Positions 6,555 through 56,118 are shown, numbered from the stretch's first letter. The stretch is DNA of 64,000 bases from an uncultured Candidatus Saccharibacteria bacterium (GCA_964399865.1 CAYNRJ010000002.1:22151-86150); one strand, 5' to 3'. Numbers and translations: made by a program. Notes: a model not told the origin generated them from the letters alone.

Positions 6555-6559
6555 AAAAT

Positions 6560-27951: not shown

Positions 27952-27955
27952 TCCT

Positions 27956-34808: not shown

Positions 34809-34826
34809 GGGTGTATCATCCGTCTC

Positions 34827-35585
34827 ATGATTGCCGCCATTATTCAGGCGCGAATGGGTTCGACTCGCCTCCCTGGGAAGATCATGCTTCCCCTCGCAGG
34901 AAGATCGGTTTTGTCTCATGTCGTTGAACGCGTGAAGCGTGTGAAGGGGATTGATACGATTATCGTGGCGACGACGACTCTGCCGGAAGATGATGCGCTA
35001 GAAGCATTTTGCCACGCGGAGGGCTACGCATGTTTTAGAGGTTCCGCAGATGACGTACTCTCTCGCTACTATGAAGCCGCAAGAACAGTTGGAGCGACGG
35101 GCATTATTCGTATTACGAGTGATTGTCCACTTATTGATCCAGATACTATTGAACGCTGTATCAAACAGTACCAGAGCGGCGAGTATGATTACGTGAGCTC
35201 CTTTGTTCCGGATGAGCGGACGTTTCCTCGCGGGTTAGATACCGAGATATTTTCATTTGCTGCGCTCGAACGTGCAAATTCTTCTGCGAAAGAAAAATAT
35301 GAGCGCGAGCACGTGACGCCATACATATGGGAAAATAAGAAAGGGGAATTCAACATAGGTCCGATGTTGAGGGCAATGCCGCCGTATGATCGCGCCGATG
35401 TGCGGCTGACACTCGATTATCCAGAGGACTATGAATTATTGAAGCAGCTGTATGATCGTTTTTATGTTAAAGAAAAACTGGTAAGCGTTCCCGAAGTTCT
35501 CAAGTATCTAAGTGAGCATCCCGAAATTCCTGCTATAAATGCATTTCGAGAGGCTGAATATCCTAAACAAGGAATAAGAGTATGA
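34827..35585 (+). CDS. Acylneuraminate/pseudaminate cytidylyltransferase (NeuA/PseF/SpsF family)
   Basis: MIAAIIQARMGSTRLPGK N-terminal CTP-transferase motif. Confidence 0.7.
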   Translation: MIAAIIQARMGSTRLPGKIMLPLAGRSVLSHVVERVKRVKGIDTIIVATTTLPEDDALEAFCHAEGYACFRGSADDVLSRYYEAARTVGATGIIRITSDCPLIDPDTIERCIKQYQSGEYDYVSSFVPDERTFPRGLDTEIFSFAALERANSSAKEKYEREHVTPYIWENKKGEFNIGPMLRAMPPYDRADVRLTLDYPEDYELLKQLYDRFYVKEKLVSVPEVLKYLSEHPEIPAINAFREAEYPKQGIRV

Positions 35586-36193
35586 GTATCGCTATCGTCG
35601 ATTATGGAATGGGAAATACGGGCTCTGTTAAGAGCGCACTCAAGCTTCTTGGCGCTGAAGGGGTGATCACCGCAAAGCCAGAAGATTTTAAGCGTGCTTC
35701 ACACATTATTCTTCCGGGAGTCGGGGCGTTTCCTGATGGCATGAAGCGTGTAAAGGCATGCGAGGGATTCGAGGCTCTTGAGAAAGAAGTTCTCGAAAAT
35801 AAAAAACCTTTCTTAGGCATCTGTCTTGGCATGCAACTACTTGGCGAGTACGGAGAAGAAGCGGGCGGCGCGAAAGGGCTTGGATGGATACCGGGGAACG
35901 TGCGGCGCTTAAAAGTCGATGAGGCAAAGTTTAGACTTCCACACATAGGGTGGAATGAAGTCTCGTTCACGGGAGAGTGCCCGCTCTTTACGGGAGTAGT
36001 TCAAAAAGATTTTTATTTTGTCCATTCATATGTACTTGAGCCGACGGACGCGAGCACAATAAAAGGTACCTGTACATACGGTGAGACATTCCCTGTGGTC
36101 GTCCAGAAGGAAAATATATTCGGCACGCAATTCCATCCAGAGAAAAGTCAGAAGAGTGGGATTACTGTTCTTAAGAATTTCATCTCCCTCTAA
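35582..36193 (+). CDS. Glutamine amidotransferase, HisH paralog (WbuY/PseA-type, acetamidino-forming system)
   Basis: IAIVDYGMGN...GICLGMQLL (catalytic Cys)...FGTQFHPEKS. It is a glycan-locus paralog, not the histidine-operon gene. Confidence 0.85.
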   Translation: MSIAIVDYGMGNTGSVKSALKLLGAEGVITAKPEDFKRASHIILPGVGAFPDGMKRVKACEGFEALEKEVLENKKPFLGICLGMQLLGEYGEEAGGAKGLGWIPGNVRRLKVDEAKFRLPHIGWNEVSFTGECPLFTGVVQKDFYFVHSYVLEPTDASTIKGTCTYGETFPVVVQKENIFGTQFHPEKSQKSGITVLKNFISL

Positions 36194-36195
36194 AC

Positions 36196-36945
36196 ATGCT
36201 TAAAATACGCGTTATACCTGCTCTCACTGTGAAGGATGCAAAGCTCGTGAAGAGCGTGCAGTTCCAAAACCACCGCAACATCGGCAACTACGTCGCCGCA
36301 GTACGCGTCTTTAATGCGCGCGATGTCGATGAGCTTATTTTTCTAGATCTCGACGCGCACGAAAAAGGAATCGAAACGTGGCTGCTCGAGGAAGTTACCA
36401 AGGAATGCTTTATGCCCGTCACAATAGGAGGCGGCGTGAAGACGATTGATGAAGTGCAGACACTGCTTTCACTCGGAGCGGATAAAGTGTCGGTAAATAG
36501 TGAAGCCATACGTCGGCCTGCGTTTATCACGGAAATTGCAGAGCGGTACGGAAGTCAGTGCGCTGTTGTATCTATTGATGTGAAAAAGATAGAAAAAGGA
36601 TGGGAGGTTTTTTATGATGGCGGGACTCACGCAGCAGGACTCGACGTAATAGAGTGGGCGAAAGAGGTAGAGAAACACGGCGCAGGAGAGATACTTCTCC
36701 ACTCGATTGATAGAGACGGCGTAATGGAGGGATATGATCTCGATCTCATTCGAAATGTCGCAGGTGCGGTTCGGATACCCGTTGTCGCGCTCGGTGGGGC
36801 CGGAAAAGTGTCGGATTGTGTTGAGGCGGTACGTGCCGGCGCGTCAGCGATAGCTGCCGCGAGTATTTTTCAATACACGGAGACCACGCCCCAGATAATA
36901 AAACAAGCACTCTCAGAGGCTGGCTTTCCGGCTCGAGTTCGGTAA
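36196..36945 (+). CDS. Cyclase subunit, HisF paralog (WbuZ-type)
   Basis: RVIPALTVKD...HisF-like (beta/alpha)8 motifs. Immediately downstream of the HisH paralog. Confidence 0.85.
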   Translation: MLKIRVIPALTVKDAKLVKSVQFQNHRNIGNYVAAVRVFNARDVDELIFLDLDAHEKGIETWLLEEVTKECFMPVTIGGGVKTIDEVQTLLSLGADKVSVNSEAIRRPAFITEIAERYGSQCAVVSIDVKKIEKGWEVFYDGGTHAAGLDVIEWAKEVEKHGAGEILLHSIDRDGVMEGYDLDLIRNVAGAVRIPVVALGGAGKVSDCVEAVRAGASAIAAASIFQYTETTPQIIKQALSEAGFPARVR

Positions 36946-36955
36946 GATTGGCGGA

Positions 36956-37609
36956 ATGAGTTCGGCAAAAAAGGACACAAAGCAGATATCGGAGTGGGCG
37001 GGAGACATGGGCAAGCTCTACACCGATCGTAATCCGCAGTCGGTAGAAGAATTCGACCGTGTGTACCTAAAGGACTACAACGCGACGCGCACCTCGATGA
37101 ATGAGGAGTTCCTCAGTGATCTTCCAAAGAACCTCAAGATGCTCGAGGTTGGCTCAAACGTTGGACTGCAACTCGAATTTCTTCGCCGCATGGGTTTTAC
37201 GGGAGCGGAGGGAATTGAAATTAATGAATATGCGGTCGCACAGGCAAAGAAGATAAATCCCGAGGTCCGTGTTACTCACGGCTCAGGCTTCGACATTCCT
37301 TTCAAAGATGGGGAGTTCGATCTTGTGTTTACTTCTGGCGTCCTCATCCATATTTCGCCAAACGATATCAAGGACATTATTTCCGAGATGTACCGAGTAT
37401 CAAACCGCTACATCTGGGGCTTTGAATACTACGCACCAAAGTACACAGAGGTAACATATCGCGGGAGCAAAGACCTTCTGTGGAAGACTGACTTCTGCGC
37501 ATTGTTCCAGGAAACATTCCCAGATCTCGTTGTTGTAAAAGAGAAAAAGTATCCGATGACTGATGGCGTGAATGCGAGCCAGATGTATCTACTTGAGAAG
37601 CGCTCATAA
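36956..37609 (+). CDS. Small SAM-dependent methyltransferase (pseudaminic-acid-biosynthesis-associated methylase-like)
   Basis: LEVGSNVGLQL motif I; about 217 aa. Sits among the Pse genes. Confidence 0.55.
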   Translation: MSSAKKDTKQISEWAGDMGKLYTDRNPQSVEEFDRVYLKDYNATRTSMNEEFLSDLPKNLKMLEVGSNVGLQLEFLRRMGFTGAEGIEINEYAVAQAKKINPEVRVTHGSGFDIPFKDGEFDLVFTSGVLIHISPNDIKDIISEMYRVSNRYIWGFEYYAPKYTEVTYRGSKDLLWKTDFCALFQETFPDLVVVKEKKYPMTDGVNASQMYLLEKRS

Positions 37610-37612
37610 ACC

Positions 37613-38758
37613 ATGTTCCGCTATTGCACTCGCTGTGTGATGCCAAATACAAAGCCGGACCTCTCGTTCGACGAGTCCGGAGTGTGTGATGCATGTTCAT
37701 CTGCGGCAGTGAAGAAAGAAATAGACTGGAAAGCGCGTGAAGCAGAATTTCGTGAGCTTGTAGCGAAATTCAAGAATAAAAGTTGTTCAAACTATGACTG
37801 TGTGATCCCGGTTTCCGGCGGAAAAGATAGTCACTACCAGGCGTACATGGCGCGTCAGTACGGCCTAAATCCACTTCTGGTCAATTTTGAAGCGACGCTC
37901 CGTAATGATTTAGGCAGGAAGAATTTTGAGAACATTCGTCAGTTTGGCGACATGATCGAATTCAAAAAGAATCCTGAGGTGTACAAAAAGATGTGCCTCG
38001 AAGCGTTTCGCCGCGTCGGGGATCACGAATGGCCAAATCATATTGGCATATTCACATTTCCCATCCGTGCGGCGGTGCATTTCGGTATTCCGCTTGTTAT
38101 TTGGGGCGAGAATTCGCAGCTTGAATACGGGGGTCCAAAAGCGGCGCGCATGAAGAATGTTCTCGATAGAAGATGGCTCGAGGAATTCGGCGGTCTTCTA
38201 GGACTTCGCGTCGACGATATGGTCGGCGTCGAAGGTATCACGAATGAAGACCTTGTTTCGTACCGATATCCGACCGACGATGAATTAAAGAAGGCAGGAA
38301 TATTCGGCGCATTCCTCGGCTATTACTTTAAGTGGGACGCGATACCGCAGACGGAATTGATGAAGCAGCACGGCTTTTCAATAAAGGAAGATGGTCCAGT
38401 TGAGGGAACATACACGAACTACGAAAATCTCGACGATGCGATCGTCGCTATCCATGACTACCTCAAGTTTGTGAAATTTGCCTTCGGTCGCGCAACCGAT
38501 CACGCGTGCATCGATGTTCGAAATGGCCGACTCACTCGCGATGAGGCAGTCGCGCTCGTAACAAAACACGACGGCAAATGGCCGAAAATTGCAGTCAAAG
38601 CATTTATTGAATTCTTCAATATATCGCTCGACGAATTCAATAGGGTAGTCGATTCGTTTACGAACAAAGCACTATTTGAAGTGAACCCTGACGGTTCATT
38701 TAAGCGCGATTCAGATGGCAGTCTCATAAAGAAATATAGAGACTACTCTGTCTCGTAA
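37613..38758 (+). CDS. N-acetyl sugar amidotransferase (WbuX/WbpG family, PP-loop ATP pyrophosphatase)
   Basis: Cys-rich N-terminus CTRCVMPNTKPD...CDAC. SGGKDS PP-loop. Co-located with the HisH/HisF paralogs. Confidence 0.75.
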   Translation: MFRYCTRCVMPNTKPDLSFDESGVCDACSSAAVKKEIDWKAREAEFRELVAKFKNKSCSNYDCVIPVSGGKDSHYQAYMARQYGLNPLLVNFEATLRNDLGRKNFENIRQFGDMIEFKKNPEVYKKMCLEAFRRVGDHEWPNHIGIFTFPIRAAVHFGIPLVIWGENSQLEYGGPKAARMKNVLDRRWLEEFGGLLGLRVDDMVGVEGITNEDLVSYRYPTDDELKKAGIFGAFLGYYFKWDAIPQTELMKQHGFSIKEDGPVEGTYTNYENLDDAIVAIHDYLKFVKFAFGRATDHACIDVRNGRLTRDEAVALVTKHDGKWPKIAVKAFIEFFNISLDEFNRVVDSFTNKALFEVNPDGSFKRDSDGSLIKKYRDYSVS

Positions 38759-38759
38759 T

Positions 38760-39443
38760 ATGCGCGCTTCATTCATCATTCGTGCCTACAATTCTGCAGA
38801 AGTACTGCCTCGCGCAATTGAAAGTGCTCTTGCTCAAGATTTTCCGAAAAATGACTACGAAATCGTGGTCGTTGATGATGGGTCGATCGACACAACATTC
38901 GCTGTCGCGAGTAAGTTCGCCGAGGATACGCGTGTACGCATTGTGAGACAAGAGAATAAGGGAATTATTGAGGCGGGTATGGCCGGGATCCGTGCAGCAG
39001 AAGGCGAGATATTTATATTTCTTGATGCGGATGATGAATCAATGCCAAGCGCGCTGTCGAATTTTGTCGCGGCACTTTCTAATCCGGAAGTCGACTATGC
39101 GTACGGTCACTATTTTGAGGAATACGAAGGGAATCGAAAGCTAGTCGAACCAACTGATCCTTTTAAAGCTCCAGCAGGTGCCTTCGCGTGGAGGAAGAAA
39201 CTCGTGGTGGAAGAAGGTGGTTTTTTTGGTGTCTCTATGTTCCCCGAATATGAAATGCTGCTAAAAACTTCAGACACGTGGAAAGGAAAACTCATAGCCG
39301 AGCCGGTGTTTATCTACCATAGGAGCAAGGGGAGTCTCACGGGAGACCCTGCCCGAGTTGATAGTGAAATCGATAAGCTCAGAAAACGGTATCCTGACAA
39401 GGCGGAGATGATTGGACAAATACGAAATTATATGCTCTCGTAG
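38760..39443 (+). CDS. Glycosyltransferase family 2
   Basis: FIIRAYNSA...VVDDGSIDTT...LDADD. Confidence 0.7.
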   Translation: MRASFIIRAYNSAEVLPRAIESALAQDFPKNDYEIVVVDDGSIDTTFAVASKFAEDTRVRIVRQENKGIIEAGMAGIRAAEGEIFIFLDADDESMPSALSNFVAALSNPEVDYAYGHYFEEYEGNRKLVEPTDPFKAPAGAFAWRKKLVVEEGGFFGVSMFPEYEMLLKTSDTWKGKLIAEPVFIYHRSKGSLTGDPARVDSEIDKLRKRYPDKAEMIGQIRNYMLS

Positions 39444-39450
39444 AGAGTAT

Positions 39451-40128
39451 ATGGGCTCTAAAGTCATCGCTGTAGCTGCCATTAGACCTTGGAATATCAA
39501 GGAATTTAAGGCCTGGAAGGCCCCAAAAGGCTATAAGAAGGTCCTTATCCAGAATCCGAAGGAGCTGACCCTTACAAGGCTCAAAAAGCTCAATCCCCGC
39601 TACGTTTTCTTCCCTCATTGGTCGTGGATCATCCCAAAAGAGGTACATGAAAACTTCGAATGCGTACTATTTCACATGACCGACCTTCCGTTCGGCCGCG
39701 GCGGGAGCCCAATGCAAAATCTGATCGCGCGCGGAATATACAAAACAAAAGTGTCTGCGATTCGCGTTGCGGAGGGACTCGATACGGGTGATGTGTACCT
39801 TAAACATCCGTTCAATATAAAAGAAGGAAGTGCGGAAGAGCTCTTCGGAAAACTTTCCAAGATCATTTTCAAAATGATGAGCGATATCCTCCGGCTTGAA
39901 CCAAAACCAATTCCACAAAAAGGGAAACCGGTTATTTTCAAACGCCGAAATTCAGCAGAAAGTGAGATTCCCGCAGATGTACATGGAAGAAAACTCTACG
40001 ATTTTATTCGCATGCTTGATGCGCCGGAATATCCGGCCGCGTTCATCAAAAATGGCTCTGGGCGGATCATCCTTCGTCGCGCTAGAATGAGAGGGAAGAC
40101 AGTGACCGCAGATGCTGAATTCGAATAA
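39451..40128 (+). CDS. Formyltransferase-fold protein (Fmt/PurN-like N-terminal domain)
   Basis: FHMTDLPFGRGGSPMQNLIARG matches the H-x-SLLP-x-xRG formyltransferase motif. Confidence 0.6.
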   Translation: MGSKVIAVAAIRPWNIKEFKAWKAPKGYKKVLIQNPKELTLTRLKKLNPRYVFFPHWSWIIPKEVHENFECVLFHMTDLPFGRGGSPMQNLIARGIYKTKVSAIRVAEGLDTGDVYLKHPFNIKEGSAEELFGKLSKIIFKMMSDILRLEPKPIPQKGKPVIFKRRNSAESEIPADVHGRKLYDFIRMLDAPEYPAAFIKNGSGRIILRRARMRGKTVTADAEFE

Positions 40129-40138
40129 ATTTCTAACT

Positions 40139-40828
40139 ATGAAGAACAAAACATCCGTACTTGTAATTGCCGCTCATCCTGACGATGAGGTTTTAGGTTG
40201 TGGTGGCGCTATCGCGCGGCATATCGAAGAGGGAGATTCCGTAACCGTCGTCATTCTTGGTGAAGGAATCGCATCTCGCGCAGGTACGCCCGAGTCAACA
40301 GTGAAAAAGCTCCAGGAGGCGCTCTATAAAGATGCGCACAAAGCAAATACTATTCTTGGGGTAAAGGATCTTATTTTGAAAGGGCTTCCCGACAATCAGT
40401 TCGACAGCGTCCCGCTTCTTTCCGTCGTTCACGAGATAGAGTCCGTGATCCATGAGGTGAATCCGACCGTGATCTATACGCATCATGGAAGTGATACGAA
40501 TGTAGATCACCGTGTTGTCTCTGAAGCTGTTGCTGCGGCTGTGAGACCAATGCCGGATAATGCCATAGAAGAAGTGCGCGCGTTCGAAGTTCCCTCCTCA
40601 AGCGAGTGGAATTTTACGAGACCGCTTTTTAGACCGCAGGTATTCGTAGCTCTTACTGAAAAGCAGTTGAAAAAGAAAATTACAGCAATGAATGCATACA
40701 AGTCGGAAGTTCGCGCATTCCCACACCCACGCTCGCCGGAATATCTAGAATCTCTTGCTCGAGTACGCGGTGGACAATCGGGTACAAATGCAGCGGAAGC
40801 GTTCGAGCTTGTATATAGAAGGATATGA
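40139..40828 (+). CDS. PIG-L/LmbE-family N-deacetylase
   Basis: VLVIAAHPDDEVLGCGG metal-binding motif. Confidence 0.75.
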   Translation: MKNKTSVLVIAAHPDDEVLGCGGAIARHIEEGDSVTVVILGEGIASRAGTPESTVKKLQEALYKDAHKANTILGVKDLILKGLPDNQFDSVPLLSVVHEIESVIHEVNPTVIYTHHGSDTNVDHRVVSEAVAAAVRPMPDNAIEEVRAFEVPSSSEWNFTRPLFRPQVFVALTEKQLKKKITAMNAYKSEVRAFPHPRSPEYLESLARVRGGQSGTNAAEAFELVYRRI

Positions 40829-41463
40829 AGATCACGATACTAGTCGATACTCCGCAGAGTTGGATAGTCCCATACGCGCAAACACTCGAATCAAACCTTC
40901 ATTCGCTGGGGCACGATGCCTCATTGGTGCACGCAGCAAATAAAATAGAGTCAGGCGACATCGCCTTTTTCCTCTCGTGCGAGCGAATTATCCCTGTTTC
41001 CATTTTGAGAAAGAACAAACACAATCTTGTTGTACACGAAAGCGCTCTTCCTAAGGGAAAAGGATGGTCGCCGATGACGTGGCAAGTCCTCGAAGGTAAG
41101 AGGAAGATCCCGGTCACACTCTTTGAGGCAGCAGAGTCCGTTGATAGCGGAGTTATTTACGCACAAAACTCAATAGCGCTTACGGGTAGCGAATTGGTTG
41201 ACGAGCTTCGCGAGAAGCAGGGGAAAGCGACAATTGCCCTCGCCCTTTCGTTTGTTCGCAAGTATCCAGTAATTCGCGGCAAGAAACAAAGCGGGAGGGC
41301 TACGTTTTATCCTCGAAGAAAACCGAAGGACAGTGAGCTTGATCCAAATAAAACAATCGCGGAGCAGTTCGATCTTCTTCGTGTCGTCGATAACGAACGA
41401 TATCCGGCATTTTTCAAATATCGCGGGCACGAGTATGTGCTGAAGATTTCCAAAAGAAAGTAA
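40825..41463 (+). CDS. Formyltransferase-fold protein, second copy
   Basis: VVHESALPKGKGWSPMTW matches the formyltransferase core motif. Confidence 0.55.
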   Translation: MKITILVDTPQSWIVPYAQTLESNLHSLGHDASLVHAANKIESGDIAFFLSCERIIPVSILRKNKHNLVVHESALPKGKGWSPMTWQVLEGKRKIPVTLFEAAESVDSGVIYAQNSIALTGSELVDELREKQGKATIALALSFVRKYPVIRGKKQSGRATFYPRRKPKDSELDPNKTIAEQFDLLRVVDNERYPAFFKYRGHEYVLKISKRK

Positions 41464-41464
41464 T

Positions 41465-42544
41465 ATGAAAACTCCTGCAATCACCATAGGGAAAAGAAAG
41501 GTGGGGCCCGGGCACCCATGTTTTGTGATCGCGGAAGTTTCTGCAAATCACCATCAGAAATACGAGGAAGCTGAGGCAATTATTCGCGCGGCAAAAGAAG
41601 CGGGAGCAGATGCGGTAAAGCTCCAAACATATACGCCTGATACGATGACGATTGATTCAGATAAAAAATGGTTCTTCTTGGGGGGAAAAGACACACCGGA
41701 ATCTTGGAAGAAAACCAATCTCTACAAACTCTACGGCACCGCATACACACCCTGGGAATGGCAGCCGAAATTGAAGAAGTTTGCAGAAAGCCTTGGTCTT
41801 ATATTCTTCTCGACACCCTTTGATGCGACGGCGGTGGATTTTCTAGATAAGATGAAAGTACCTTGTTACAAGATCGCCTCCTACGAAGCGACGGATATTC
41901 CGCTCCTCAAGAAAATCGCTTCAACAAAAAAGCCCGTCATCATGTCAATAGGCTTTGCTGAGCTCTCTGAGGTCAAGGACTCTATGAAAGCGCTTCGCGG
42001 TGCAGGAGCAAAAGAAATCGCAGTCCTCCACTGCGTGACCGCATACTCCGGAGATCCAAAACCCGAGTTTATGAATTTAAATACTATCCAAGATATCGCT
42101 AAGCGTTTCAATGTAGTAAGCGGATTTTCAGATAACAATGCGGGTATCGAGGCGCCTATCGCGGCGGTGTATGCGGGCGCATCAATAGTGGAGAAGCATG
42201 TGACGCTTGATAGAAAGCTTGGCGGACCTGATGCGCGATTTTCTATAGAACCACAGGAACTAGCGGAGATGGTGCGTGGAATTAGGCGTGCTGAAAGCGC
42301 ACTTGGGAAAGTCCAATACGGTCCTGTAAACGAAGACGAGAAGAATTATAAAAATCTGCGCAGATCTCTTTTTGCCGTCGCAGATATACAGAAGGGCGAG
42401 AAATTTACGGCAAAGAACACACGAGTTATCCGCCCGGCATACGGTCTTCCGCCCAAAGAGTACGATAGAGTTATCGGGAAGCGCGCTGCTCGTAGTATAG
42501 AGCGAGGGGAGCCGCTTACCAAGAAAGACATTACACGCTCATGA
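41465..42544 (+). CDS. pseI: Nonulosonic acid synthase (NeuB/PseI/LegI family; PEP-condensing TIM barrel plus C-terminal SAF domain)
   Basis: ...CFVIAEVSANH...KLQTY.. N-terminus, and C-terminal ...GEKFT..N.RVIRP SAF-domain motif. The pseI symbol rests only on adjacency to pseB and pseC. Confidence 0.75.
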   Translation: MKTPAITIGKRKVGPGHPCFVIAEVSANHHQKYEEAEAIIRAAKEAGADAVKLQTYTPDTMTIDSDKKWFFLGGKDTPESWKKTNLYKLYGTAYTPWEWQPKLKKFAESLGLIFFSTPFDATAVDFLDKMKVPCYKIASYEATDIPLLKKIASTKKPVIMSIGFAELSEVKDSMKALRGAGAKEIAVLHCVTAYSGDPKPEFMNLNTIQDIAKRFNVVSGFSDNNAGIEAPIAAVYAGASIVEKHVTLDRKLGGPDARFSIEPQELAEMVRGIRRAESALGKVQYGPVNEDEKNYKNLRRSLFAVADIQKGEKFTAKNTRVIRPAYGLPPKEYDRVIGKRAARSIERGEPLTKKDITRS

Positions 42545-45615: not shown

Positions 45616-46131
45616 TTAAAGGCTGAGAAATTCTGTAAGTTTCTCAATGCCTTGCTCGATACTGACTTCGTTTGTCTTTATTGTTATCTCGGGATTAATC
45701 GGTTTTTCGTATGGATTTTTATCACTCATGCCGATGAGGTCGTCTTTCTCACCCGCTTTCGCTTTTGCATAGAGTCCTTTTGTATCGCGTGCGATACAGA
45801 CTTCGAGGGGGCAATCGATAAAGACTTCAATGTAGCCTTCCCCGATTATTTGTCTTGATCGTGCTCTATCTTCCAAGAAAGGTGAGATGACGGAAACAAG
45901 TACGAAATCATTCGAGGCAGCTTTTTCTTTCGCATATTCTGCAATGAGTCGGTTGTTCTCGCGAATATCGTCGCGAGAGAATCCGTGTTTGTGTCCGTGC
46001 ATCTTTCGCACTTCGTCGCCATCGAGCAAGTAGGCTGACTTTTCGATTTTCTTCAAGGTAGTGTGGAGAGCGTTTGCAAGCGTTGATTTGCCTGAGCCGC
46101 TTAAACCTGTGAACCACAACACTTTTCCCAT
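45616..46131 (-). CDS. cysC: Adenylyl-sulfate (APS) kinase
   Basis: VLWFTGLSGSGKSTLA P-loop; about 171 aa. Immediately downstream of the sulfurylase fusion gene. Confidence 0.85.
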   Translation of the reverse strand: MGKVLWFTGLSGSGKSTLANALHTTLKKIEKSAYLLDGDEVRKMHGHKHGFSRDDIRENNRLIAEYAKEKAASNDFVLVSVISPFLEDRARSRQIIGEGYIEVFIDCPLEVCIARDTKGLYAKAKAGEKDDLIGMSDKNPYEKPINPEITIKTNEVSIEQGIEKLTEFLSL

Positions 46132-46134
46132 GGA

Positions 46135-48393
46135 TTATTCTACAAACACTTTCTTCCCTTTTTTAATCAAGTCGAGAATTAGCTCTGAAATCTCAGGTCG
46201 CATGAACCACTCCGGAAGCTTTTTGCCCGAAAGGAGAGTCTTTCTCGCTTCAGTTCCGCTGATGTGTAGCTTTTCACCCTCGTTGTGTTTGGAGGTGTCG
46301 TCAGCTTCATGCACGTGCCTACGCTCCTTCTCTGAATAAAAAACGTGATTGAACTTTACCGGTACAATTCCAAGATCTGGGAATTTCTCGAAGATATCGT
46401 GAGATGCGGTCGGGGCGTAGAAATTACCTACGCCAGTGTGATCGCGGCCGATAATAAAATGACTGCATCCAAAATTCTGCCGACAGATCGCAGTAAACAA
46501 TGCCTCGCGCGGACCAGCGTAGCGAGAGAACGTCGCGTATGTACCAAATACGGCACTGTGTTTACGATAAAACTGCTTCATCATAAGCGCGTATGATGCG
46601 ACAATCGTCTCCGCTTCAAAGTCACCTTTTTTCTTCTTTCCAACAATAGGATGAATAAAAAGTCCATCAGCAAAGGATCGGCGTAGGGCCTCGAGTTGGA
46701 TAAACTCGTGTCCCCTGTGTATTGCGTTTCGTGTATGGAAGGCAACTATCTTTGCCCAGCCGCGATCAACGAAGAGTCGGCGAGATTGTCTTGGGGTAAG
46801 TTCGTAGCGTTTTGTTGGAGAATCAAAACGTTTGAGAAGAGTTATTTTTCCAGCAAGAAAGAGTGGCTTCATTGTTAGCGCTTCGGCGACACCGGGGTGA
46901 GCTGGGTCTTTCGTACCGTACATTTTCTGAACGAATTTTTCCCTGTCGTACGTATATTTTTCTTTGAGATGAAGTATGCCGACCGTCTCTCCTTTTTTAT
47001 TCGTAAGAGCCACGTCCTGCTTTAGTTTCATTTTCTTTGCTTCCTCCTCACTGGCATCCAAAACAATCGGCATAGGCCAAATGACGCCGTTTGCGAGCCG
47101 CATGCGAGAAAGCACAGATTCAAGGTCTTTTTTACCAAGGAATCCTTCAAGTGGACTGAACGTGCCGATCGCGATCTGTTCGATATCCATGTGCTGTTCG
47201 TCGGTAATCTGAAGAGTATGCAATCCCTTCTTTGGAGTGTAGGAAGAATCCGCTACCCTATCGACGAGAACGCCGCCATTTGGCTCTACCAACGCTGATT
47301 CACTACTTCCGGAGAGCAGGTAGTCGCCTGTATCAAGCTGTTTTACATACGGAAGACCAACTGGGCGAACTTTCGCAGGGACGAATCTTTCCGCCTGGTC
47401 AATCAGTTTATTGATCGTTGTAATAACTTCGATCGGGTATTTGCCTATAGCGGTTTCCGCTGCGAGCGTGAGTCCATATGCACCATCAAGAATTGTTTGG
47501 ATAACATCGTGTACTTCCGCTCGAGTCGGATTCTTCTTTTGTACCATTGATTCGAGCAGGTTCGTCGCAACGAAGACACCTTTTTTCTTTTTACGCGCTC
47601 TGTCCATGACGATCTTTTGTGTGAAAGGTATGCGCTCGATCGGGACCTCACGGCTCAAGTCTCCGCGGTCTATGAGGAGGAAATCAGACTTATCGATGAT
47701 CTTATCTAGAGATTCGAGTGCTTCGACGCATTCGATCTTGGAAATTATTTTCATGCGATTCTTCGACACCTTACGGACGAGGTCGACTGTTTCCGGGGAA
47801 CGAACAAACGACACAGCGATATGCTCGACCCCTTCCTTAAGAGCGATCTGTATCGCTTCAAGGTCTTTCGGCGAAAGGGCAGGGAGGTCGTATTTCTTCT
47901 TTGAAGCAGAATCGATGACGACACCCTTATTCATTCCCATCTGACCGCCTGTGATCGCTGACGCGACTACATAACCGTTTGTCTTGAGTGGCGAAATATC
48001 CAGCACCCGAAACACCAGCGAGTCGAAATCTACATAGATAAGGTCGCCTTCCTCCAATTGCGTAACGATATTCCCCGGTCGAAGCGACATGCGAGTTTTA
48101 TCTCCCACTATCTCTTCTTTATAAATATTGACGATATCGCCCTCTTCAATCGAGACTTCTCGATTTGCTATTGCGCCATTACGAACCTGAGAGCCTTCAG
48201 TGTCGAGAATGAATGGAACGCCGACCTCGCGTGCCATTTTCATAAAACGTCGCTGGTCTTCTATGCTCGAGTGCGACATATTTACACGCACGAAATCGAC
48301 TCCGCGGTCTTTAAGCATTCGCAGGCTCTCCTCTGTGTTAGTGGAGGGTCCGAGCGTGACGACTATCTTTGTTTTTGTAGAATGTTTCCCCAT
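46135..48393 (-). CDS. sat: Fusion protein: N-terminal pyruvate kinase catalytic domains (about 370 aa, no C-terminal regulatory domain) joined to a full-length C-terminal sulfate adenylyltransferase (ATP sulfurylase)
   Basis: PK motifs KTKIVVTLGP, VNMSHS, KIISKIEC (catalytic Lys context), IDRGDLSREVP, ATNLLESM, AAETAIGKYP. The Sat part has the N-terminal PUA-like domain (...GTFSPLEGFLGKKD...VIWPMPIVLD) and the QTRN/HRAH-type motif FHTRNAIHRGHEF, plus GRDHTGVG. Confidence 0.8.
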   Translation of the reverse strand: MGKHSTKTKIVVTLGPSTNTEESLRMLKDRGVDFVRVNMSHSSIEDQRRFMKMAREVGVPFILDTEGSQVRNGAIANREVSIEEGDIVNIYKEEIVGDKTRMSLRPGNIVTQLEEGDLIYVDFDSLVFRVLDISPLKTNGYVVASAITGGQMGMNKGVVIDSASKKKYDLPALSPKDLEAIQIALKEGVEHIAVSFVRSPETVDLVRKVSKNRMKIISKIECVEALESLDKIIDKSDFLLIDRGDLSREVPIERIPFTQKIVMDRARKKKKGVFVATNLLESMVQKKNPTRAEVHDVIQTILDGAYGLTLAAETAIGKYPIEVITTINKLIDQAERFVPAKVRPVGLPYVKQLDTGDYLLSGSSESALVEPNGGVLVDRVADSSYTPKKGLHTLQITDEQHMDIEQIAIGTFSPLEGFLGKKDLESVLSRMRLANGVIWPMPIVLDASEEEAKKMKLKQDVALTNKKGETVGILHLKEKYTYDREKFVQKMYGTKDPAHPGVAEALTMKPLFLAGKITLLKRFDSPTKRYELTPRQSRRLFVDRGWAKIVAFHTRNAIHRGHEFIQLEALRRSFADGLFIHPIVGKKKKGDFEAETIVASYALMMKQFYRKHSAVFGTYATFSRYAGPREALFTAICRQNFGCSHFIIGRDHTGVGNFYAPTASHDIFEKFPDLGIVPVKFNHVFYSEKERRHVHEADDTSKHNEGEKLHISGTEARKTLLSGKKLPEWFMRPEISELILDLIKKGKKVFVE

Positions 48394-48487
48394 AAGCCCC
48401 TCCGTGTTTTCGTGGCCTCTTTATCGAGGTCAGCTTCTCTTGCTTGCTAGCGAAATATACTACTAATTACGCCATAAATCTACGTTC

Positions 48488-51301: not shown

Positions 51302-52006
51302 ATGCTTGGTATTATTCCTGCGCGCGGAGGCTCAAAACGCCTCCCGGGAAAGAACATTAAAGATTTCTTTGGGAAACCACTTATCGCGTGGACCATTGAG
51401 GCGGCAAAATCTAGCGGCGTATTTGATCGACTTATCGTCCTCACCGATGATCAGGAAATCTCTGATATCGCAAAAAAGTATGGCGCAGAAGTTCCTTTCA
51501 TGGAGCCATCAGAGTTTGCGGGGGACACTGCATATGTAGGCGATGCAATCCGTTATGCATTGCAGCAACTCGAGAGTGAAGGGTATACCTCGCCGGATTT
51601 TATTTTGCTCGAACCGAGTTCAGTCGGGAGAGAGATAAAACACATTCAAGAAGTCGCGAAGCTTCTTGAGGATAGAAGGGATTTTGATTCAATCATCGGC
51701 ATTTCCGAAGTACCTGCGCATCATAGTCACCTCAAACAATTGAACATCGGAGAGAATGGAATAGTTGGACGAGTCGGAGACGGGGCGCCTCTTAAGAATC
51801 TTACGCACCGAAATCAGGATATCGCAAAATCGTATTACATTAATTCCGCAATCTATGGGTTTCGTCGGAAGAATCTTTTCGAGGGCGACAAGAAACTGTG
51901 GGGAGAGAGTACGTATGGTTACGTTATGGATGACTCAAAGCTCGCAGACATCGACACGGCGGCTGATTGGGCTTTGGCAGAATTTAAATTAAAGAACACA
52001 CTATGA
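51302..52006 (+). CDS. neuA: Acylneuraminate cytidylyltransferase (CMP-nonulosonic acid synthetase; NeuA/LegF family)
   Basis: MLGIIPARGGSKRLPGKN N-terminal motif; about 234 aa. Confidence 0.8.
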   Translation: MLGIIPARGGSKRLPGKNIKDFFGKPLIAWTIEAAKSSGVFDRLIVLTDDQEISDIAKKYGAEVPFMEPSEFAGDTAYVGDAIRYALQQLESEGYTSPDFILLEPSSVGREIKHIQEVAKLLEDRRDFDSIIGISEVPAHHSHLKQLNIGENGIVGRVGDGAPLKNLTHRNQDIAKSYYINSAIYGFRRKNLFEGDKKLWGESTYGYVMDDSKLADIDTAADWALAEFKLKNTL

Positions 52007-53103
52007 AAAATCTCCAATTCGGGAAGCTCACTATCGGAGGCACGAGAGTTGTGGTGATCGCGGAAATTGCAGACTCACACAACGGTTCGATGGAGACGGC
52101 TAAGAAACTAGTCGATGCGGCAAAGGCGTCCGGTGCTGATGTAGCGAAATTTCAATTACATTTGGTCGGGAAAAATGAAGTGAATGGAGTAAATGAAATG
52201 ATTCCCGGCTCAATTCAGATGTGGGACGGGCCACTCTATGATATTTTGCAGCGCAATTTGTTTACTGTAGAGATGCACAAAGAGATCAAAGCGTACTGCG
52301 AAAGTGTAGGTATCGAATATCTTTGCACCCCATTTTGTACCGCAGCAGTTGATGTGCTTAATGACATCGGCGTAAATGCGTTCAAAACCGGCTCGGGTGA
52401 ACTTGATAATCTTCCGCAGCATCGTCGACTGGCACAGGTTTCCAAAAAGACGGGGAAACCGGTTATCGTTTCAACGGGCATGAGCATTCTCGAAGAAGTC
52501 GCGGATACAGTGAAGGTCTACAAAGAGGAGGGTGCGATAGAGAATCTTGTTCTTACGAATTGCACCTCGGAATATCCACCGAACGATTACAGTCACGCAA
52601 ATCTTGGGCTCATACAGAAAATGCAAAAAGAATTTGGCGTGTGGGTCGGGCAGAGTGATCACACGATGGACAATTACACAGCGTTCGCTGCTGTCGCACT
52701 CGGTGCGAAGGTGATCGAGAAGCACTTCACACTCGATAGAAAGCAAAAAGGACCGGACCATTTCATCGCACTTGAGCCACAGATGTTTAAAGAGCTCGTG
52801 GATGGAATTCGAAAGATCGAAGTAGCACTGGGAGAAGAAAAAAACATTTCAAAGGAGGAGCAAGTGGTACGTGATTGGGCGTTCCATTCGGTCACGAGTT
52901 TTAAAGACATACAGAAGGGCGAGAAGCTCACGACGGAAAATCTTATTGAGCGCCGCCCGAGAACGATGATGCGAGACGGGAAGAAGGTAGAAGGCATCCC
53001 TTCGAAGTATCTCGATCCAATGTATTCCAAGAAACTATTGGGACGCACGGCTGCTAGAGATATACCAAAGGACACCATGCTCGTGTGGGAGGACGCCGCC
53101 TAG
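52003..53103 (+). CDS. neuB: Nonulosonic acid synthase (NeuB/LegI family), second copy
   Basis: VVIAEIADSHNGS...; C-terminal SAF domain (GEKLTTENL..RRP). Confidence 0.8.
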   Translation: MKNLQFGKLTIGGTRVVVIAEIADSHNGSMETAKKLVDAAKASGADVAKFQLHLVGKNEVNGVNEMIPGSIQMWDGPLYDILQRNLFTVEMHKEIKAYCESVGIEYLCTPFCTAAVDVLNDIGVNAFKTGSGELDNLPQHRRLAQVSKKTGKPVIVSTGMSILEEVADTVKVYKEEGAIENLVLTNCTSEYPPNDYSHANLGLIQKMQKEFGVWVGQSDHTMDNYTAFAAVALGAKVIEKHFTLDRKQKGPDHFIALEPQMFKELVDGIRKIEVALGEEKNISKEEQVVRDWAFHSVTSFKDIQKGEKLTTENLIERRPRTMMRDGKKVEGIPSKYLDPMYSKKLLGRTAARDIPKDTMLVWEDAA

Positions 53104-53160
53104 CGAGTGAGGATCGCTACTATTGAAGGAAGCTGATTTTTGTTGTATTGTGCGTTTACT

Positions 53161-54330
53161 ATGGTGAGACGGGAAATTTCTAAAAAGAAGAAGAAAATAG
53201 CGATAATCGCTGGTTCTCGAGGTGAGTGGGGCTACTACCAGCCGATCATTCGGGAGATAGAAAAGCACCCTCTACTCGACTACGGCATCGTCGTCTCCAA
53301 CATGCACCTACTCGATCGCTTTGGCTCTTCTATAGATGAAATCCGAAAGGAGGGTTTTAAGGTGGACGCTATCATCCACAATACGCTCGATGGATACAGT
53401 CATCTCACAATGGCAAAATCGCTTGCCATTTTTATGCTCCAACTTCCTGAGATATTAAAACAGATGGAGGCCGATTTTGTGCTCGTGGGAGGCGATCGAG
53501 GAGAGCAGCTGATGGCAGCAATCACTGCGGCGCACATGTACATTCCAATTGGGCACGTACAGGCCGGAGAAGTTTCCGGAAACATTGACGGAGTATCTCG
53601 TCACGCGATCACGAAATTCGCTCATCTCCATTTCGCCGCGAACGCTGATGCAGCAAAGCGTATTCTAAAAATGGGAGAAGAATCATTCCGCGTACATACA
53701 ACAGGTGCCCCACAGCTCGATGATTTGACGAGCGGTATTGTGACACCTAGAAAAACGCTTTTCAAAAAGCTTGGGCTAGTGGAAGACAAGCGTCCGCTTA
53801 TGCTTGTGGTCCAACATCCTGTTACAGAAGAATTTGAAAAAGCGGGTGTGCATATGCATGAGACGCTCGAAGCGGTAAAGAAATTTGATGCGCAGGTCGT
53901 CATCATTATGAATAATTCGGACGCGGGCAGCACAGCTGTGTCACGTGTCATTAATAGTGAACGAACTCCAGCAATGAAAGTGTTTCCGAACGTTCCGCGT
54001 GAAGACTTTGCAGGTCTTATGGCCGCAGCGGATGTCCTCGTCGGCAATTCTTCCTCCGGCATTCTTGAGGCCCCTACATTCAAGCTCGCAGCAGTGAATA
54101 TTGGAAGTCGGGAGAAAGGAAGGCTGCAGGGTAAAAATGTCATAAACGCGCCACACAAATCTTCTGAAATTCAGAAAGCGATTAAAAAGGCACTCTCAAA
54201 AAAATTCCAATCATCGCTTCGTACCTGCGTGAATCCATACGGCGATGGAAAATCAGCAAAACGTATCGTCGACATTATCGCGAACACACCGCGCACTGAA
54301 AAGCTTGTGGTAAAGAACATTACTTACTAA
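53161..54330 (+). CDS. neuC: UDP-N-acetylglucosamine 2-epimerase (hydrolysing), NeuC/LegG family
   Basis: KKIAIIAGSRGEWGYYQPI, ...HVQAGEVSG.., and GNSSSGILEAP are non-hydrolysing/hydrolysing 2-epimerase family motifs. Confidence 0.75.
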   Translation: MVRREISKKKKKIAIIAGSRGEWGYYQPIIREIEKHPLLDYGIVVSNMHLLDRFGSSIDEIRKEGFKVDAIIHNTLDGYSHLTMAKSLAIFMLQLPEILKQMEADFVLVGGDRGEQLMAAITAAHMYIPIGHVQAGEVSGNIDGVSRHAITKFAHLHFAANADAAKRILKMGEESFRVHTTGAPQLDDLTSGIVTPRKTLFKKLGLVEDKRPLMLVVQHPVTEEFEKAGVHMHETLEAVKKFDAQVVIIMNNSDAGSTAVSRVINSERTPAMKVFPNVPREDFAGLMAAADVLVGNSSSGILEAPTFKLAAVNIGSREKGRLQGKNVINAPHKSSEIQKAIKKALSKKFQSSLRTCVNPYGDGKSAKRIVDIIANTPRTEKLVVKNITY

Positions 54331-54340
54331 ACTTCTTATT

Positions 54341-54685
54341 ATGAATGCGACTCACTACAACGACTATCTTCTCCAAAAAGATGCGACTATTGAAGACGCT
54401 CTCTCTGCCATCACCGAAAATAAGCGTGGGGCCGTCCTTATCGTTGAATCAGATGACACGCTCGTCGGGGTTGTCGCGGACGGTGATATTCGTCGTGCAC
54501 TAGTTAAAGGAGCGACGACCCTCACGCCAATTGAAAAGATTGTAAATTTGAATGTGGTCTCCGTTAAAAAAGGTCGTGATCAGAAAGAGAAAGGTGAGGA
54601 GATATTCGCGTCTCACGTAGGTATTAATCTCATTCCAGTACTTGAGGCAGGAAATCGCGTGTGTGACGTGCTTGTGAGAGGGTAA
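54341..54685 (+). CDS. CBS-domain pair protein
   Basis: About 114 aa with two CBS-like repeats (GVVADGDIRRA...). Confidence 0.55.
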   Translation: MNATHYNDYLLQKDATIEDALSAITENKRGAVLIVESDDTLVGVVADGDIRRALVKGATTLTPIEKIVNLNVVSVKKGRDQKEKGEEIFASHVGINLIPVLEAGNRVCDVLVRG

Positions 54686-54702: not shown

Positions 54703-56118
54703 ATGAAAAACGACAAGAAGCCACACGTCATCTATCTAATCATCGACGCCGGCGGATTTGGTCATACTAGTCTCGCGGGATATTTTCGCGACACGACACC
54801 TTTCTTAAAGGAATTTTCGAAGGAGTGCGTGCAATATCCACTCGCCTTTGCACAAGGCCCTATTTCAGGTCTCTCTATTGGCAGCTTCACTACTTCTTCG
54901 TACGCGTTTGATCATAAGGATTGTCCGATTGAAGTAAGGCCGTCACGTCCTTCAATAGCCTCTGTTTTACAAAAGAATGGCTATTACACATCGGTCATGA
55001 CCTCTAATCCATACTATGCGAGAAAGCTTGGACATGATCAGGGTGTCGACCACTATAAAATGTTTTTCGAAGAGTCTGATGAGATACGACGGATCGCCGA
55101 AAAGGGACTTCTTATACGCGCTCTCAAGACACTCAATAAAATATCTTTGTATCGCGGGGTCAAAGAATGGATCAAGAAAAATCTTCGATCTCTGTACAAC
55201 GCGGGCAGGATGAGAAAACAAATGATGGCGACGAGGCAGAGCCCGTTCGGCGACGCCGCGCAAGCAAACAAAGAGATCCTCAAACTCCTTAACGACCGCC
55301 CACAAGATAAACCCCTCTTTCTCCTCACTCAGTACATGGATCTTCACGCCCCGCATCTCCCCCCGGACGAGTTTCTAAGAAAATTTGGAGGAACGATATC
55401 AAAACAAGAGCAGTACATTTATTGGCAGAGGAGAAGTATGCGCCCACTCCCTGAATTCTCTCAGAAAGAAGTTGAAGATCTCACACTTCTATATGATGCC
55501 TGCCTTGCGCACATAGATTCACGCATACGAGATGTTGTGAACGAATTAAAGCGAGAGGGGATGTATGATGATTCGCTCATAATTATTTCCGCAGATCATG
55601 GAGAAGCATTTTTTGAGCACGGTGATCTCGGCCATCATGGCCTTCTGTACGAAGAAAATATTCGCGTACCGCTCCTCATCAAATATCCTCACGGAATCGA
55701 GGCAGGAACATCCCGAGACAGCGTCGTGTCTCTTATAGATGTCGCGCCTACTATTCTCGGTGCGGCTGGCGTAAAGCGTCCTGGAACATTTGTAGGAAAA
55801 GATTTGCAGTCCGGATCCGCGTCAGCTTCGAATCAGGTCTCAGATGATCATGCTGTTTCTTTTGTTGCATTCCGTTTTTCTCCAGAGAACTTCACACGAC
55901 TCAACTTTGAGAATTACGCATTATCTGTCCGCACCAAAAACTGGAAGCTCATCGTACAGAGCGGAAAGCCAGACGAGCTCTATAATCTCGAGGAGGATCC
56001 GAAGGAAAAAAGTAACCTGCTAGAAACCAAAGCGCAGAACAAAGGTGCCGCGGAGGCATACCAATCGCTTCGCGAGATGATGCAACCGTATCTAGATAGG
56101 GTGAGTGATAGGTCGTAA
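54703..56118 (+). CDS. Sulfatase-like hydrolase/transferase (alkaline-phosphatase superfamily)
   Basis: N-terminal VIYLIIDAGG; C-terminal IIISADHGEAFFEHGDLGHHG metal-site motif. No Cys/Ser-x-Pro-x-Arg formylglycine motif was seen. Confidence 0.65.
   Translation: MKNDKKPHVIYLIIDAGGFGHTSLAGYFRDTTPFLKEFSKECVQYPLAFAQGPISGLSIGSFTTSSYAFDHKDCPIEVRPSRPSIASVLQKNGYYTSVMTSNPYYARKLGHDQGVDHYKMFFEESDEIRRIAEKGLLIRALKTLNKISLYRGVKEWIKKNLRSLYNAGRMRKQMMATRQSPFGDAAQANKEILKLLNDRPQDKPLFLLTQYMDLHAPHLPPDEFLRKFGGTISKQEQYIYWQRRSMRPLPEFSQKEVEDLTLLYDACLAHIDSRIRDVVNELKREGMYDDSLIIISADHGEAFFEHGDLGHHGLLYEENIRVPLLIKYPHGIEAGTSRDSVVSLIDVAPTILGAAGVKRPGTFVGKDLQSGSASASNQVSDDHAVSFVAFRFSPENFTRLNFENYALSVRTKNWKLIVQSGKPDELYNLEEDPKEKSNLLETKAQNKGAAEAYQSLREMMQPYLDRVSDRS

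Follow-up and report, generated by a model that had tools for sequence, protein, structure and literature searches.

A widespread fusion of a pyruvate kinase-family module to ATP sulfurylase as a candidate unit of PAPS synthesis

Introduction

Sulfate activation on a single chain is known from bifunctional bacterial and fungal Sat-APSK proteins, such as that of Aquifex aeolicus (2gks), and from metazoan 3'-phosphoadenosine 5'-phosphosulfate (PAPS) synthase, in which ATP sulfurylase (Sat) is joined to adenosine 5'-phosphosulfate (APS) kinase (APSK) and the downstream reaction pulls the unfavorable sulfurylase step. In the APSK-Sat-pyrophosphatase triple fusion of diatoms, haptophytes and oomycetes, a fused accessory enzyme removes a by-product, pyrophosphate (PPi), by hydrolysis and thereby pulls the pathway (PMC4220642). 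In the CysD/CysN(-CysC) system, mentioned in PMC3734648, a further energy-rich phosphate compound is spent on sulfate activation to overcome its thermodynamics. The fusion partners of ATP sulfurylase given in PMC3734648 and PMC4220642 are APSK, pyrophosphatase, APS reductase and GTPase; pyruvate kinase (PK) is not among them. Here we analyze a gene encoding a PK-family module fused to a complete ATP sulfurylase (PK-Sat), which lies in a 64,000-nucleotide stretch of DNA from an uncultured Candidatus Saccharibacteria bacterium (GCA_964399865.1 CAYNRJ010000002.1:22151-86150). This whole stretch is called the window, and positions are counted from its first letter.

The fusion has features in common with each of these systems. 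Its Sat half is of the same homo-oligomeric type as the sulfurylase of the Sat-APSK proteins (33-40% identity to 8a8d, 1v47 and 2gks), but the protein differs from them in its added N-terminal PK module and, in the window, in having APS kinase as a separate gene. Since cysC is a separate open reading frame (ORF), the window does not encode a bifunctional PAPS synthase with Sat and APS kinase on one chain. With the pyrophosphatase triple fusion it shares the principle of a fused accessory enzyme, although the proposed target is ADP, which would be recycled with phosphoenolpyruvate (PEP), and both the domain order and the organisms differ. CysD/CysN is more distant, with an unrelated heterodimeric sulfurylase, GTP hydrolysis on a G-protein domain and no PEP phosphotransfer. 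Compared with canonical PKs (PykF/PykA, PKM), the module has the same A+B fold and the same set of catalytic and ligand residues, whereas it has no C-domain, scores below the TIGR01064 cut-off, shows about ten fixed departures and is fused to Sat and/or APSK. The same activities (ATP sulfurylase, APS kinase, and PK with PEP) have been combined in synthetic PAPS cascades, since ADP removal is needed there (PMC9885120); those cascades are separate commercial enzymes mixed in vitro, while PK-Sat is naturally encoded in one polypeptide or operon. In all of the natural systems, an accessory reaction drives sulfate activation or relieves its inhibition, and PK-Sat would work in a like manner. The family appears to be an undescribed variant of the PAPS-synthase design.

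The fusion gene and its product

A single 752-residue ORF comprising a PK core and a complete ATP sulfurylase had been read from the sequence in a preliminary description of this locus, and the Pfam boundaries (PF00224, PF14306 and PF01747; Table 1) confirm it. The PF00224 match, at residues 7-323 with 234 bits, covers profile positions 3-327 of 328, that is, the A-domain together with the B-domain cap. The loss of the PK C-terminal allosteric domain, proposed at the same time, is borne out as well, with no Pfam match to PF02887 (PK_C) in the 752-residue protein. The PK part falls narrowly under the curated TIGR01064 cut-off (291.7 against 306.4) because only positions 2-338 of the 476 in that model are present. 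The Sat part exceeds two curated NCBIfam cut-offs (PRK04149, 426 against 387; TIGR00339, 346 against 323), and CysC exceeds that of TIGR00455 (178.7 against 138.7), with a P-loop GLSGSGKST in its translation.

The motifs expected of both enzymes are found in the fusion (TKTKIVVTLGP, VNMSHS, SKIE, IDRGDL, AETAIGKYP, FHTRNAIHRGH and GRDH), and only the earlier reading of one of them as MDRGDL needs correcting to IDRGDL. In an alignment of 104 homologs, the residues of the Sat motifs are invariant (H553, T554, R555, N556, H559, H562, R624, G627, P628, E630, G649, R650, D651 and H652); the active-site motifs are H559-R-G-H562, R624-Y-A-G-P-R-E630 and G649-R-D-H652. By these scores and motifs, both qualify as bona fide enzymes, the Sat half as an ATP sulfurylase of the homo-oligomeric type and CysC as an APS kinase. 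Foldseek aligns the Sat half to ATP sulfurylase 8a8d with 39% identity and a target-normalised TM-score of 0.94, and finds no solved structure spanning both halves (best query-normalised TM-score 0.48). An AlphaFold2 model of the whole protein is confident (predicted local distance difference test, pLDDT, 92.6; predicted TM-score, pTM, 0.90), with a helix at 348-355 in the linker, where pLDDT is lower (69-86). Two linker residues, Y358 and L359, are nearly invariant in the 104-homolog alignment. Together, the pTM of the model and the conserved linker motif suggest that the two modules are held in a fixed arrangement.

Directly after the fusion comes cysC, as first described (PF01583/TIGR00455, 3-nucleotide gap). 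The junction reads TAA-tcc-ATG which, with the GGAGG Shine-Dalgarno sequence ahead of the fusion, is consistent with a two-gene operon that is probably translationally coupled. In the ORF map, this pair is the sole minus-strand unit inside a long array of plus-strand genes. The 94-nucleotide divergent region upstream presumably holds promoters; a consensus scan for promoters and terminators gave nothing above shuffled background, and nothing convincing in that region.

Could the fusion be an artefact, either an assembly chimera or a sequencing frameshift merging two genes? The window is metagenome-derived, and beyond this nothing was found that speaks for such an origin. An identical 752-residue protein is encoded on four independently assembled contigs, from three different sequencing runs and an NCBI record, and therefore the fusion is not a chimera. 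Furthermore, hundreds of homologs match it in length and architecture, 76 of the 80 top species-level loci have the single ORF again, some of them on complete replicons from cultured strains, and the linker itself contains conserved residues. With the identical protein on four contigs and the recurrent single-ORF architecture, chimera and frameshift are both rejected, an artefact being next to inconceivable.

Table 1. Coordinates of the fusion gene, its domains and signals, and of other genes discussed (window positions).
Feature	Coordinates	Strand	Evidence
PK-Sat fusion gene, one unbroken ORF, 752 aa, ATG start, stop codon within coordinates	46135..48393	-	
PK module, A-domain TIM barrel and B-domain cap, aa 7-338	47380..48375	-	PF00224, solved-PK alignment, Foldseek
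Inter-module linker, aa 339-369, short predicted helix and conserved NYLL-type motif	47287..47379	-	Between Pfam envelopes
PUA-like N-terminal domain of ATP sulfurylase, aa 370-522	46828..47286	-	PF14306, 160 bits
ATP sulfurylase catalytic domain, aa 529-740 (HTRN..HRGH, RYAGPRE and GRDH motifs)	46174..46809	-	PF01747, 249 bits
cysC, APS kinase, 171 aa, 3 nt downstream of the fusion	45616..46131	-	PF01583, 161 bits; TIGR00455
Shine-Dalgarno GGAGG, 5 nt ahead of the fusion ATG	48399..48403	-	Read from the sequence
Divergent intergenic region, 94 nt, between the fusion gene and the TagF-like Glyphos_transf gene	48394..48487	.	ORF map
Na_H_Exchanger (PF00999) membrane protein, convergent with cysC, 7 nt between stop codons	44331..45608	+	Pfam
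PF00884 sulfatase-family protein (Sulfatase and SGSH_C)	54703..56118	+	Pfam

The PK module belongs to a distinct subfamily

How far is the N-terminal module still a pyruvate kinase? Its closest sequence match among solved PKs is the M. tuberculosis enzyme (5wrp, E-value 1.5e-55, over the A and B domains), and Foldseek matches it to the E. coli, M. tuberculosis and PKM2 enzymes, identity to solved PKs being 24-34%. For residue-level comparison, 120 fused homologs were aligned with E. coli PykF. The motifs based on this PykF reference were cross-checked against an independent HMMER alignment to 5wrp, which gives the same motifs. The first-shell residues R36, N38, S40, D64, T65, R71, K156, K219, E221, D245, T277 and E313 are invariant in the 120 homologs, at 54-69% identity. 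They comprise the catalytic Lys, the Glu and Asp ligands of Mg2+, the Asn, Ser, Asp and Thr ligands of K+, the phosphate-binding Arg residues and the Thr proton donor, and they include the Lys, Glu and Asp (K219, E221 and D245) on which the original assignment to PK had been made to depend. The B-domain cap keeps its N-K-G motif, with N155-K156 likewise invariant, and 11-12 of the 12 catalytic and ligand positions are retained down to about 36% identity. With these residues in place, the module is almost certainly catalytic.

Around this core, the second shell is remodelled. About ten positions that flank the catalytic residues, and that hardly vary in canonical PKs, carry other, fixed residues across the clade, giving a derived signature of S42, E66, S68, Q69, C222, D242, S247, N278, A311, A312 and I316. 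In motif terms, the canonical SHG becomes SHS/T, DTKGPEIR becomes DTE(S/A)QxR, KIEN becomes KIE(C/S/T), ARGDLG becomes DRGDLS, ATQML becomes ATNLL and LSGE..K becomes LAAE..I. The window protein reads SHS, DTEGSQVR, KIEC, DRGDLS, ATNLL and LAAE (LAAETAIG) at these places, where canonical second-shell residues are thus not found. This was overlooked in the preliminary description; the module is not a standard PK core. Among the 150 best representatives examined, most clade members carry 8-10 of ten derived states, with a minimum of four in a divergent sub-variant; PKs of canonical length and motifs carry 0-3. The signature is carried by PK-Sat, PK-Sat-APSK and PK-APSK proteins and also by many PKs that stand alone, have 324-376 residues and lack the C-domain. 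The determinant of K+ dependence also departs from known types: in rabbit PK, residue 117 sets K+ dependence, with E in K+-dependent and K in K+-independent enzymes (PMC8835810), and in the PK module residue 117 is Q and residue 114 is E, so that neither published pattern fits.

Since the PK half has the fold and the catalytic residues of a PK but lacks the C-domain, stays below the equivalog score and departs from the canonical motifs, we prefer to describe it as a PK-family module from a distinct subfamily and not simply as a pyruvate kinase. As judged from conservation, this subfamily is under strong constraint. An intermediate group of PKs (P0179, P0196, P0200 and P0226) has some derived states (D242, C222) together with the canonical G247 and an H at 278; in P0226 the PK module is at the C-terminus of a 786-residue protein.

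Distribution and variants of the architecture

The whole protein was searched against a collection of 5.8 billion proteins, and PK, PUA_2 and ATP-sulfurylase domains were found together in all 120 of the best matches examined (55-69% identity), 11 of which have an additional C-terminal APS kinase. An exhaustive search with the PK module alone, against 1.84 billion cluster representatives, gave PK-Sat proteins for about 82 of the top 150, with identities as low as about 36%. In a species-level survey of the best 80 loci among GTDB species representatives, PK and Sat lie in one ORF in 76, from more than 20 phyla. Carriers include Patescibacteria; Woese-, Pace- and Nanoarchaeota; Chloroflexota, Acidobacteriota, Gemmatimonadota, Nitrospinota, Planctomycetota, Verrucomicrobiota and Omnitrophota; and Elusimicrobia, Latescibacterota, Bdellovibrionota, Alpha- and Gammaproteobacteria. 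Four cultured genera are represented (Mesorhizobium, Ensifer, Sinorhizobium and Salsipaludibacter), with Mesorhizobium amorphae (two strains) and Salsipaludibacter albus among the cultured carriers and full-length copies on large secondary replicons of Sinorhizobium chiapasense and Ensifer adhaerens.

The family is large, old and spread broadly across phylogeny; the window protein is one of its ordinary members, and nothing about it is unique to the genome of the window. The preliminary description had presented the domain combination as undescribed and had itself allowed that a common family would tell against this; a common family is what the database search returned. A unique domain combination is thus rejected, and the implied rarity was wrong, since at least 76 species-level genomes, including cultured rhizobia, have it. 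The claim stands in so far as our literature search found no description of a PK-Sat fusion, which is not proof because its coverage of subscription journals is thin. There is also no full-length model for PK-Sat in NCBIfam, and source annotations of the family read merely 'sulfate adenylyltransferase' or 'pyruvate kinase'.

Triple fusions, in the order Sat-then-APSK after the PK module, account for 14 of the 76 loci. PK-APSK proteins without Sat are found in two divergent representatives, P0123 (533 residues) and P0207 (505 residues). The latter (locus L010, 2248-3765) lies within a polysaccharide locus, with a Wzx flippase, CDP-OH_P_transf, GT2 and an epimerase, and no Sat is present on the 8-kb contig. 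P0135 is a stand-alone short PK on a contig of only 1.7 kb, with no Sat downstream. Fusions of signature-bearing PKs to unrelated enzymes were not found; apart from one CBS fusion, there are just Sat-like tails that are degenerate or cut off by the end of the contig. The CBS fusion is P0145 (478 residues), in which the CBS domain takes the place of Sat. In four proteins (P0187, P0212, P0167 and P0246), the signature PK is followed by tails of about 170-310 residues that align weakly to part of the Sat catalytic domain and carry GWxRV and GC(S/T)H motifs; these tails are possibly degenerate Sat remnants.

Gene neighborhoods across the family

Pfam families were counted in the 134 ORFs that directly adjoin the fusion in species-representative genomes. 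APS_kinase (18) and the PAPS-dependent Sulfotransfer_3 (18) and Sulfotransfer_1 (17) rank highest, followed by S-adenosylmethionine (SAM) methyltransferases, DegT aminotransferases and Inositol_P phosphatases resembling CysQ, a phosphatase of 3'-phosphoadenosine 5'-phosphate (PAP). A sulfotransferase profile built from 49 neighbors of related fusions, with zero overlap with the APS-kinase matches, detects a sulfotransferase in 43 of the 76 loci, within 1.5 kb in 37 of these. APS kinase is found within 8 kb in 36 of 80 loci. Recurrent families within the same distance are epimerases, Wzx flippase, CMP-sugar synthetase, GT4, NeuB, DegT and Bac_transf-like proteins, which are typical of polysaccharide and nonulosonic-acid genes. 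APS/PAPS reductase and sulfite reductase are absent among the recurrent neighbors of the family loci.

Individual loci show the same associations. In a syntenic Parcubacteria locus (L005), a Gal-3-O-sulfotransferase is located beside the fusion; in L008, a CysQ-like Inositol_P phosphatase is immediately downstream of a triple fusion. In the rhizobial replicons, whose ORFs were called directly in this analysis, the array consists of Wzy_C, a P-loop protein, an unknown ORF, PK-Sat and APS kinase. As the commonest neighbors are APS kinase and PAPS-dependent sulfotransferases, the gene content at the family level points clearly to a pathway that supplies PAPS for the sulfation of surface glycans, not to sulfur assimilation. 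The PAPS-dependent glycan sulfation first proposed for this locus thus holds for the family, in which sulfotransferases are top neighbors, and has indirect support for the window, in which none is found. The L008 locus also has a ComB-like 2-phosphosulfolactate phosphatase (PF04029) close to the triple fusion, a hint that its genome encodes further sulfonate chemistry; the L008 coordinates of the two phosphatase genes are 2057-2740 and 10795-11592.

A possible role for the PK module

What would a PK contribute to sulfate activation? By homology, the Sat half converts ATP and sulfate to APS, and CysC converts APS to PAPS with release of ADP. The PK module, having no regulatory domain, would use PEP to turn that ADP back into ATP on site, so that the net reaction would be sulfate + ATP + PEP -> PAPS + PPi + pyruvate. 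ATP would be resupplied for both steps, and the exergonic PK step would add pull to a pathway with a very unfavorable first step. The PK reaction is strongly exergonic, at about -31 kJ/mol, and such a pull may be particularly useful in fermentative cells. At the level of the family, the PAPS would then serve sulfotransferases that decorate cell-surface glycans.

Several findings argue for this proposal. The fusion partners of the PK clade are only Sat and APS kinase, and these include PK-APSK proteins without Sat, which suggests that the ADP-producing step is the functional partner. The catalytic machinery is strictly conserved. Furthermore, PAPS synthesis in vitro by PAPSS1 nearly failed without an ATP-regeneration module of PK and PEP (PMC9885120). 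Local ATP regeneration, raised as a speculative rationale in the preliminary description, is thus the best-supported mechanism, given the PK-APSK fusions, the invariant catalytic residues and the need for ADP removal in vitro. On balance, it is somewhat probable that PK-Sat and CysC form a PAPS synthesis unit in which PK recycles the ADP of APS kinase by means of PEP.

Some observations weigh against this reading. PK has no substrate or product in common with Sat, its most frequent fusion partner; the link between them runs through APS kinase, which is within 8 kb in just 36 of the 80 loci. The role of PK in every member of the family is something we infer from sequence. Proximity alone gives no channelling of a freely diffusing nucleotide. 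About ten fixed non-canonical positions, including the Q at the determinant of K+ dependence (PMC8835810) and the altered Ser of LSGE, indicate that substrate or cation use may differ from that of a standard PK. Finally, no sulfotransferase was found in the 64-kb window, and the end use of PAPS there is read from the family.

It is possible, though clearly less likely than ADP recycling, that the PK-like module is catalytic with a changed specificity, using another acceptor, cation or donor, and is not a plain ADP-to-ATP recycler. The acceptor could be another nucleoside diphosphate (NDP), needed to make CMP-, CDP- or UDP-sugars, or else a nucleotide of the pathway itself, for instance AMP or PAP. 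Such a change would be in keeping with ten second-shell positions fixed clade-wide to non-canonical residues, of which canonical PKs show 0-3, with the T113/E114/Q117 combination that matches neither the K+-dependent nor the K+-independent signature, with a pocket that is net more acidic (K to E, A to D, K to I) and with loci rich in CTP- and CDP-dependent enzymes. However, no first-shell residue for PEP, Mg2+, K+ or nucleotide phosphates has changed, and the fusion partners are just Sat and APS kinase, with ADP as the by-product. Canonical PKs, moreover, already take several NDPs, and remodelling would be unneeded for that. Rather unlikely, in our estimate, is that the Sat/APSK-associated PK clade is a neofunctionalised phosphotransferase, whose conserved catalytic core and about ten coordinated second-shell substitutions would together give a new PEP-dependent reaction in sulfonucleotide metabolism, which would have, for example, a non-ADP pathway nucleotide as acceptor or a different activating cation.

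Alternatively, the PK module may be mainly non-catalytic and serve for scaffolding or oligomerisation, or it may sense PEP or nucleotides and so regulate Sat. A precedent exists in fungal ATP sulfurylase, where a degenerate APS-kinase-like domain serves as an allosteric module (PMC4220642), and the loss of the PK regulatory C-domain, the S311A change in the Ser of the LSGE motif and the PK-CBS variant P0145 fit the same idea. Strict conservation of all catalytic and ligand residues over a very deep family is unexpected for a pure scaffold, and the mobile B-domain cap has been kept with its N-K-G motif, which makes this explanation improbable. Least likely of the functional alternatives, and very much so, is that the unit serves assimilatory sulfate reduction for cysteine synthesis, or dissimilatory sulfur metabolism, in place of sulfation. 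Sat and CysC do also open PAPS-dependent sulfate assimilation in many bacteria; against this stand the absence of PAPS/APS reductase and sulfite reductase among the recurrent neighbors, the sulfotransferases, CysQ-like phosphatases, flippases, glycosyltransferases and nonulosonic-acid genes found there, and the position of the window gene inside a glycan locus of about 54 kb. The recycling of APS-kinase ADP by PK is therefore the reading that we retain.

The glycan locus of the window

The setting of the fusion in a glycan locus, as first described, is confirmed, and the locus extends over about 54 kb (approximately 4.4-58.4 kb of the window). It contains many glycosyltransferases, three PMT_2 proteins, deacetylases, methyltransferases and an MBOAT, as well as two NeuB, two cytidylyltransferases, PseB-like and DegT enzymes, an ABC exporter and Wzy_C. 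Two TagF-like glycerophosphotransferases are divergent from the fusion, and SecA and GatB come after the locus. The closest homolog of the fusion (69%) and the gene order agree with the Parcubacteria contig (L005), and on this basis the window probably comes from a Patescibacteria genome. In that contig, the Gal-3-O-sulfotransferase and a 240-residue unknown gene (6339-7908) lie between the TagF-like genes and the fusion; the counterpart of this pair is missing from the window, where just the 94-nucleotide intergenic region is found. No sulfotransferase was detected in the 64-kb window by Pfam on nearly all ORFs of at least 150 residues or by motif scans, by the profile from the 49 neighbors of related fusions, or by tblastn with the L005 Gal-3-O-sulfotransferase. 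Glycan sulfation at this locus is thus inferred from its relatives.

The Na_H_Exchanger protein next to cysC is 47% identical to a copy beside the fusion in L007 (13796-15064). A member of this family directly follows PK-Sat and APS kinase in M. amorphae, and two other metagenome-assembled genomes have one beside the fusion, which it adjoins in L041 and L065; L083 (10814-12256) and L057 are likewise among the loci with this association. We know of no role of this cation/proton antiporter family in sulfate activation. It is a candidate associated transporter, which might supply sulfate or K+.

The PF00884 protein has homologs directly upstream of the fusion in archaeal loci (L006, 6748-8004; L007, 6701-7924; L012, 6757-8001). 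A motif scan of the window copy did not find the C/S-x-P-x-R formylglycine motif, and it may therefore not be a true sulfatase. Between this gene and a NeuC-like epimerase is a small stand-alone CBS protein of 114 residues (54341-54685, plus strand).

Two separate nonulosonic-acid gene sets are present in the window. The one at 32624-42544 has PseB-like, DegT, CTP_transf_3, a HisH/HisF-like amidotransferase pair, a methyltransferase, a formyltransferase, a PIG-L deacetylase and NeuB+SAF; that at 51302-54330 has CTP_transf_3, NeuB and Epimerase_2. Their presence side by side in a single locus points to two different sugars of the sialic-acid-like kind. Beside the HisH/HisF-like pair, a 381-residue ORF without Pfam match (37613-38758, plus strand) has pairs of Cys residues at its N-terminus and a PP-loop motif, SGGKDS; it resembles an N-acetyl-sugar amidotransferase of acetamidino formation. 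At 26524-28882 (plus strand), the MBOAT acyltransferase is followed by an overlapping 336-residue ORF without Pfam match, an arrangement similar to that of DltB/DltD-type pairs or of pairs for polysaccharide O-acylation. Ahead of the glycan locus, the leftmost part of the window encodes a TrwB/VirD4-like type IV coupling protein and, after it, a surface protein with Lamin-tail and PKD domains (1008-4461, plus strand).

Implications

With generic names on the members of this family, metabolic reconstructions may wrongly score a glycolytic PK as present, or overlook a dedicated PAPS module. The presence of the fusion in cultured, genetically tractable rhizobia makes the hypothesis directly testable, and a natural single-chain PK-Sat(-APSK) protein is an attractive biocatalyst for PAPS production. 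If the PK clade were neofunctionalised, it would represent a previously unrecognised third enzymatic step of prokaryotic sulfate activation, spread across many phyla. The known drivers of uphill sulfate activation are APS kinase, pyrophosphatase and GTPase; PK coupling, if true, would be a fourth and would tie PAPS to PEP. It would also explain how the energy-poor, fermentative cells of Patescibacteria and DPANN afford sulfated surface glycans.

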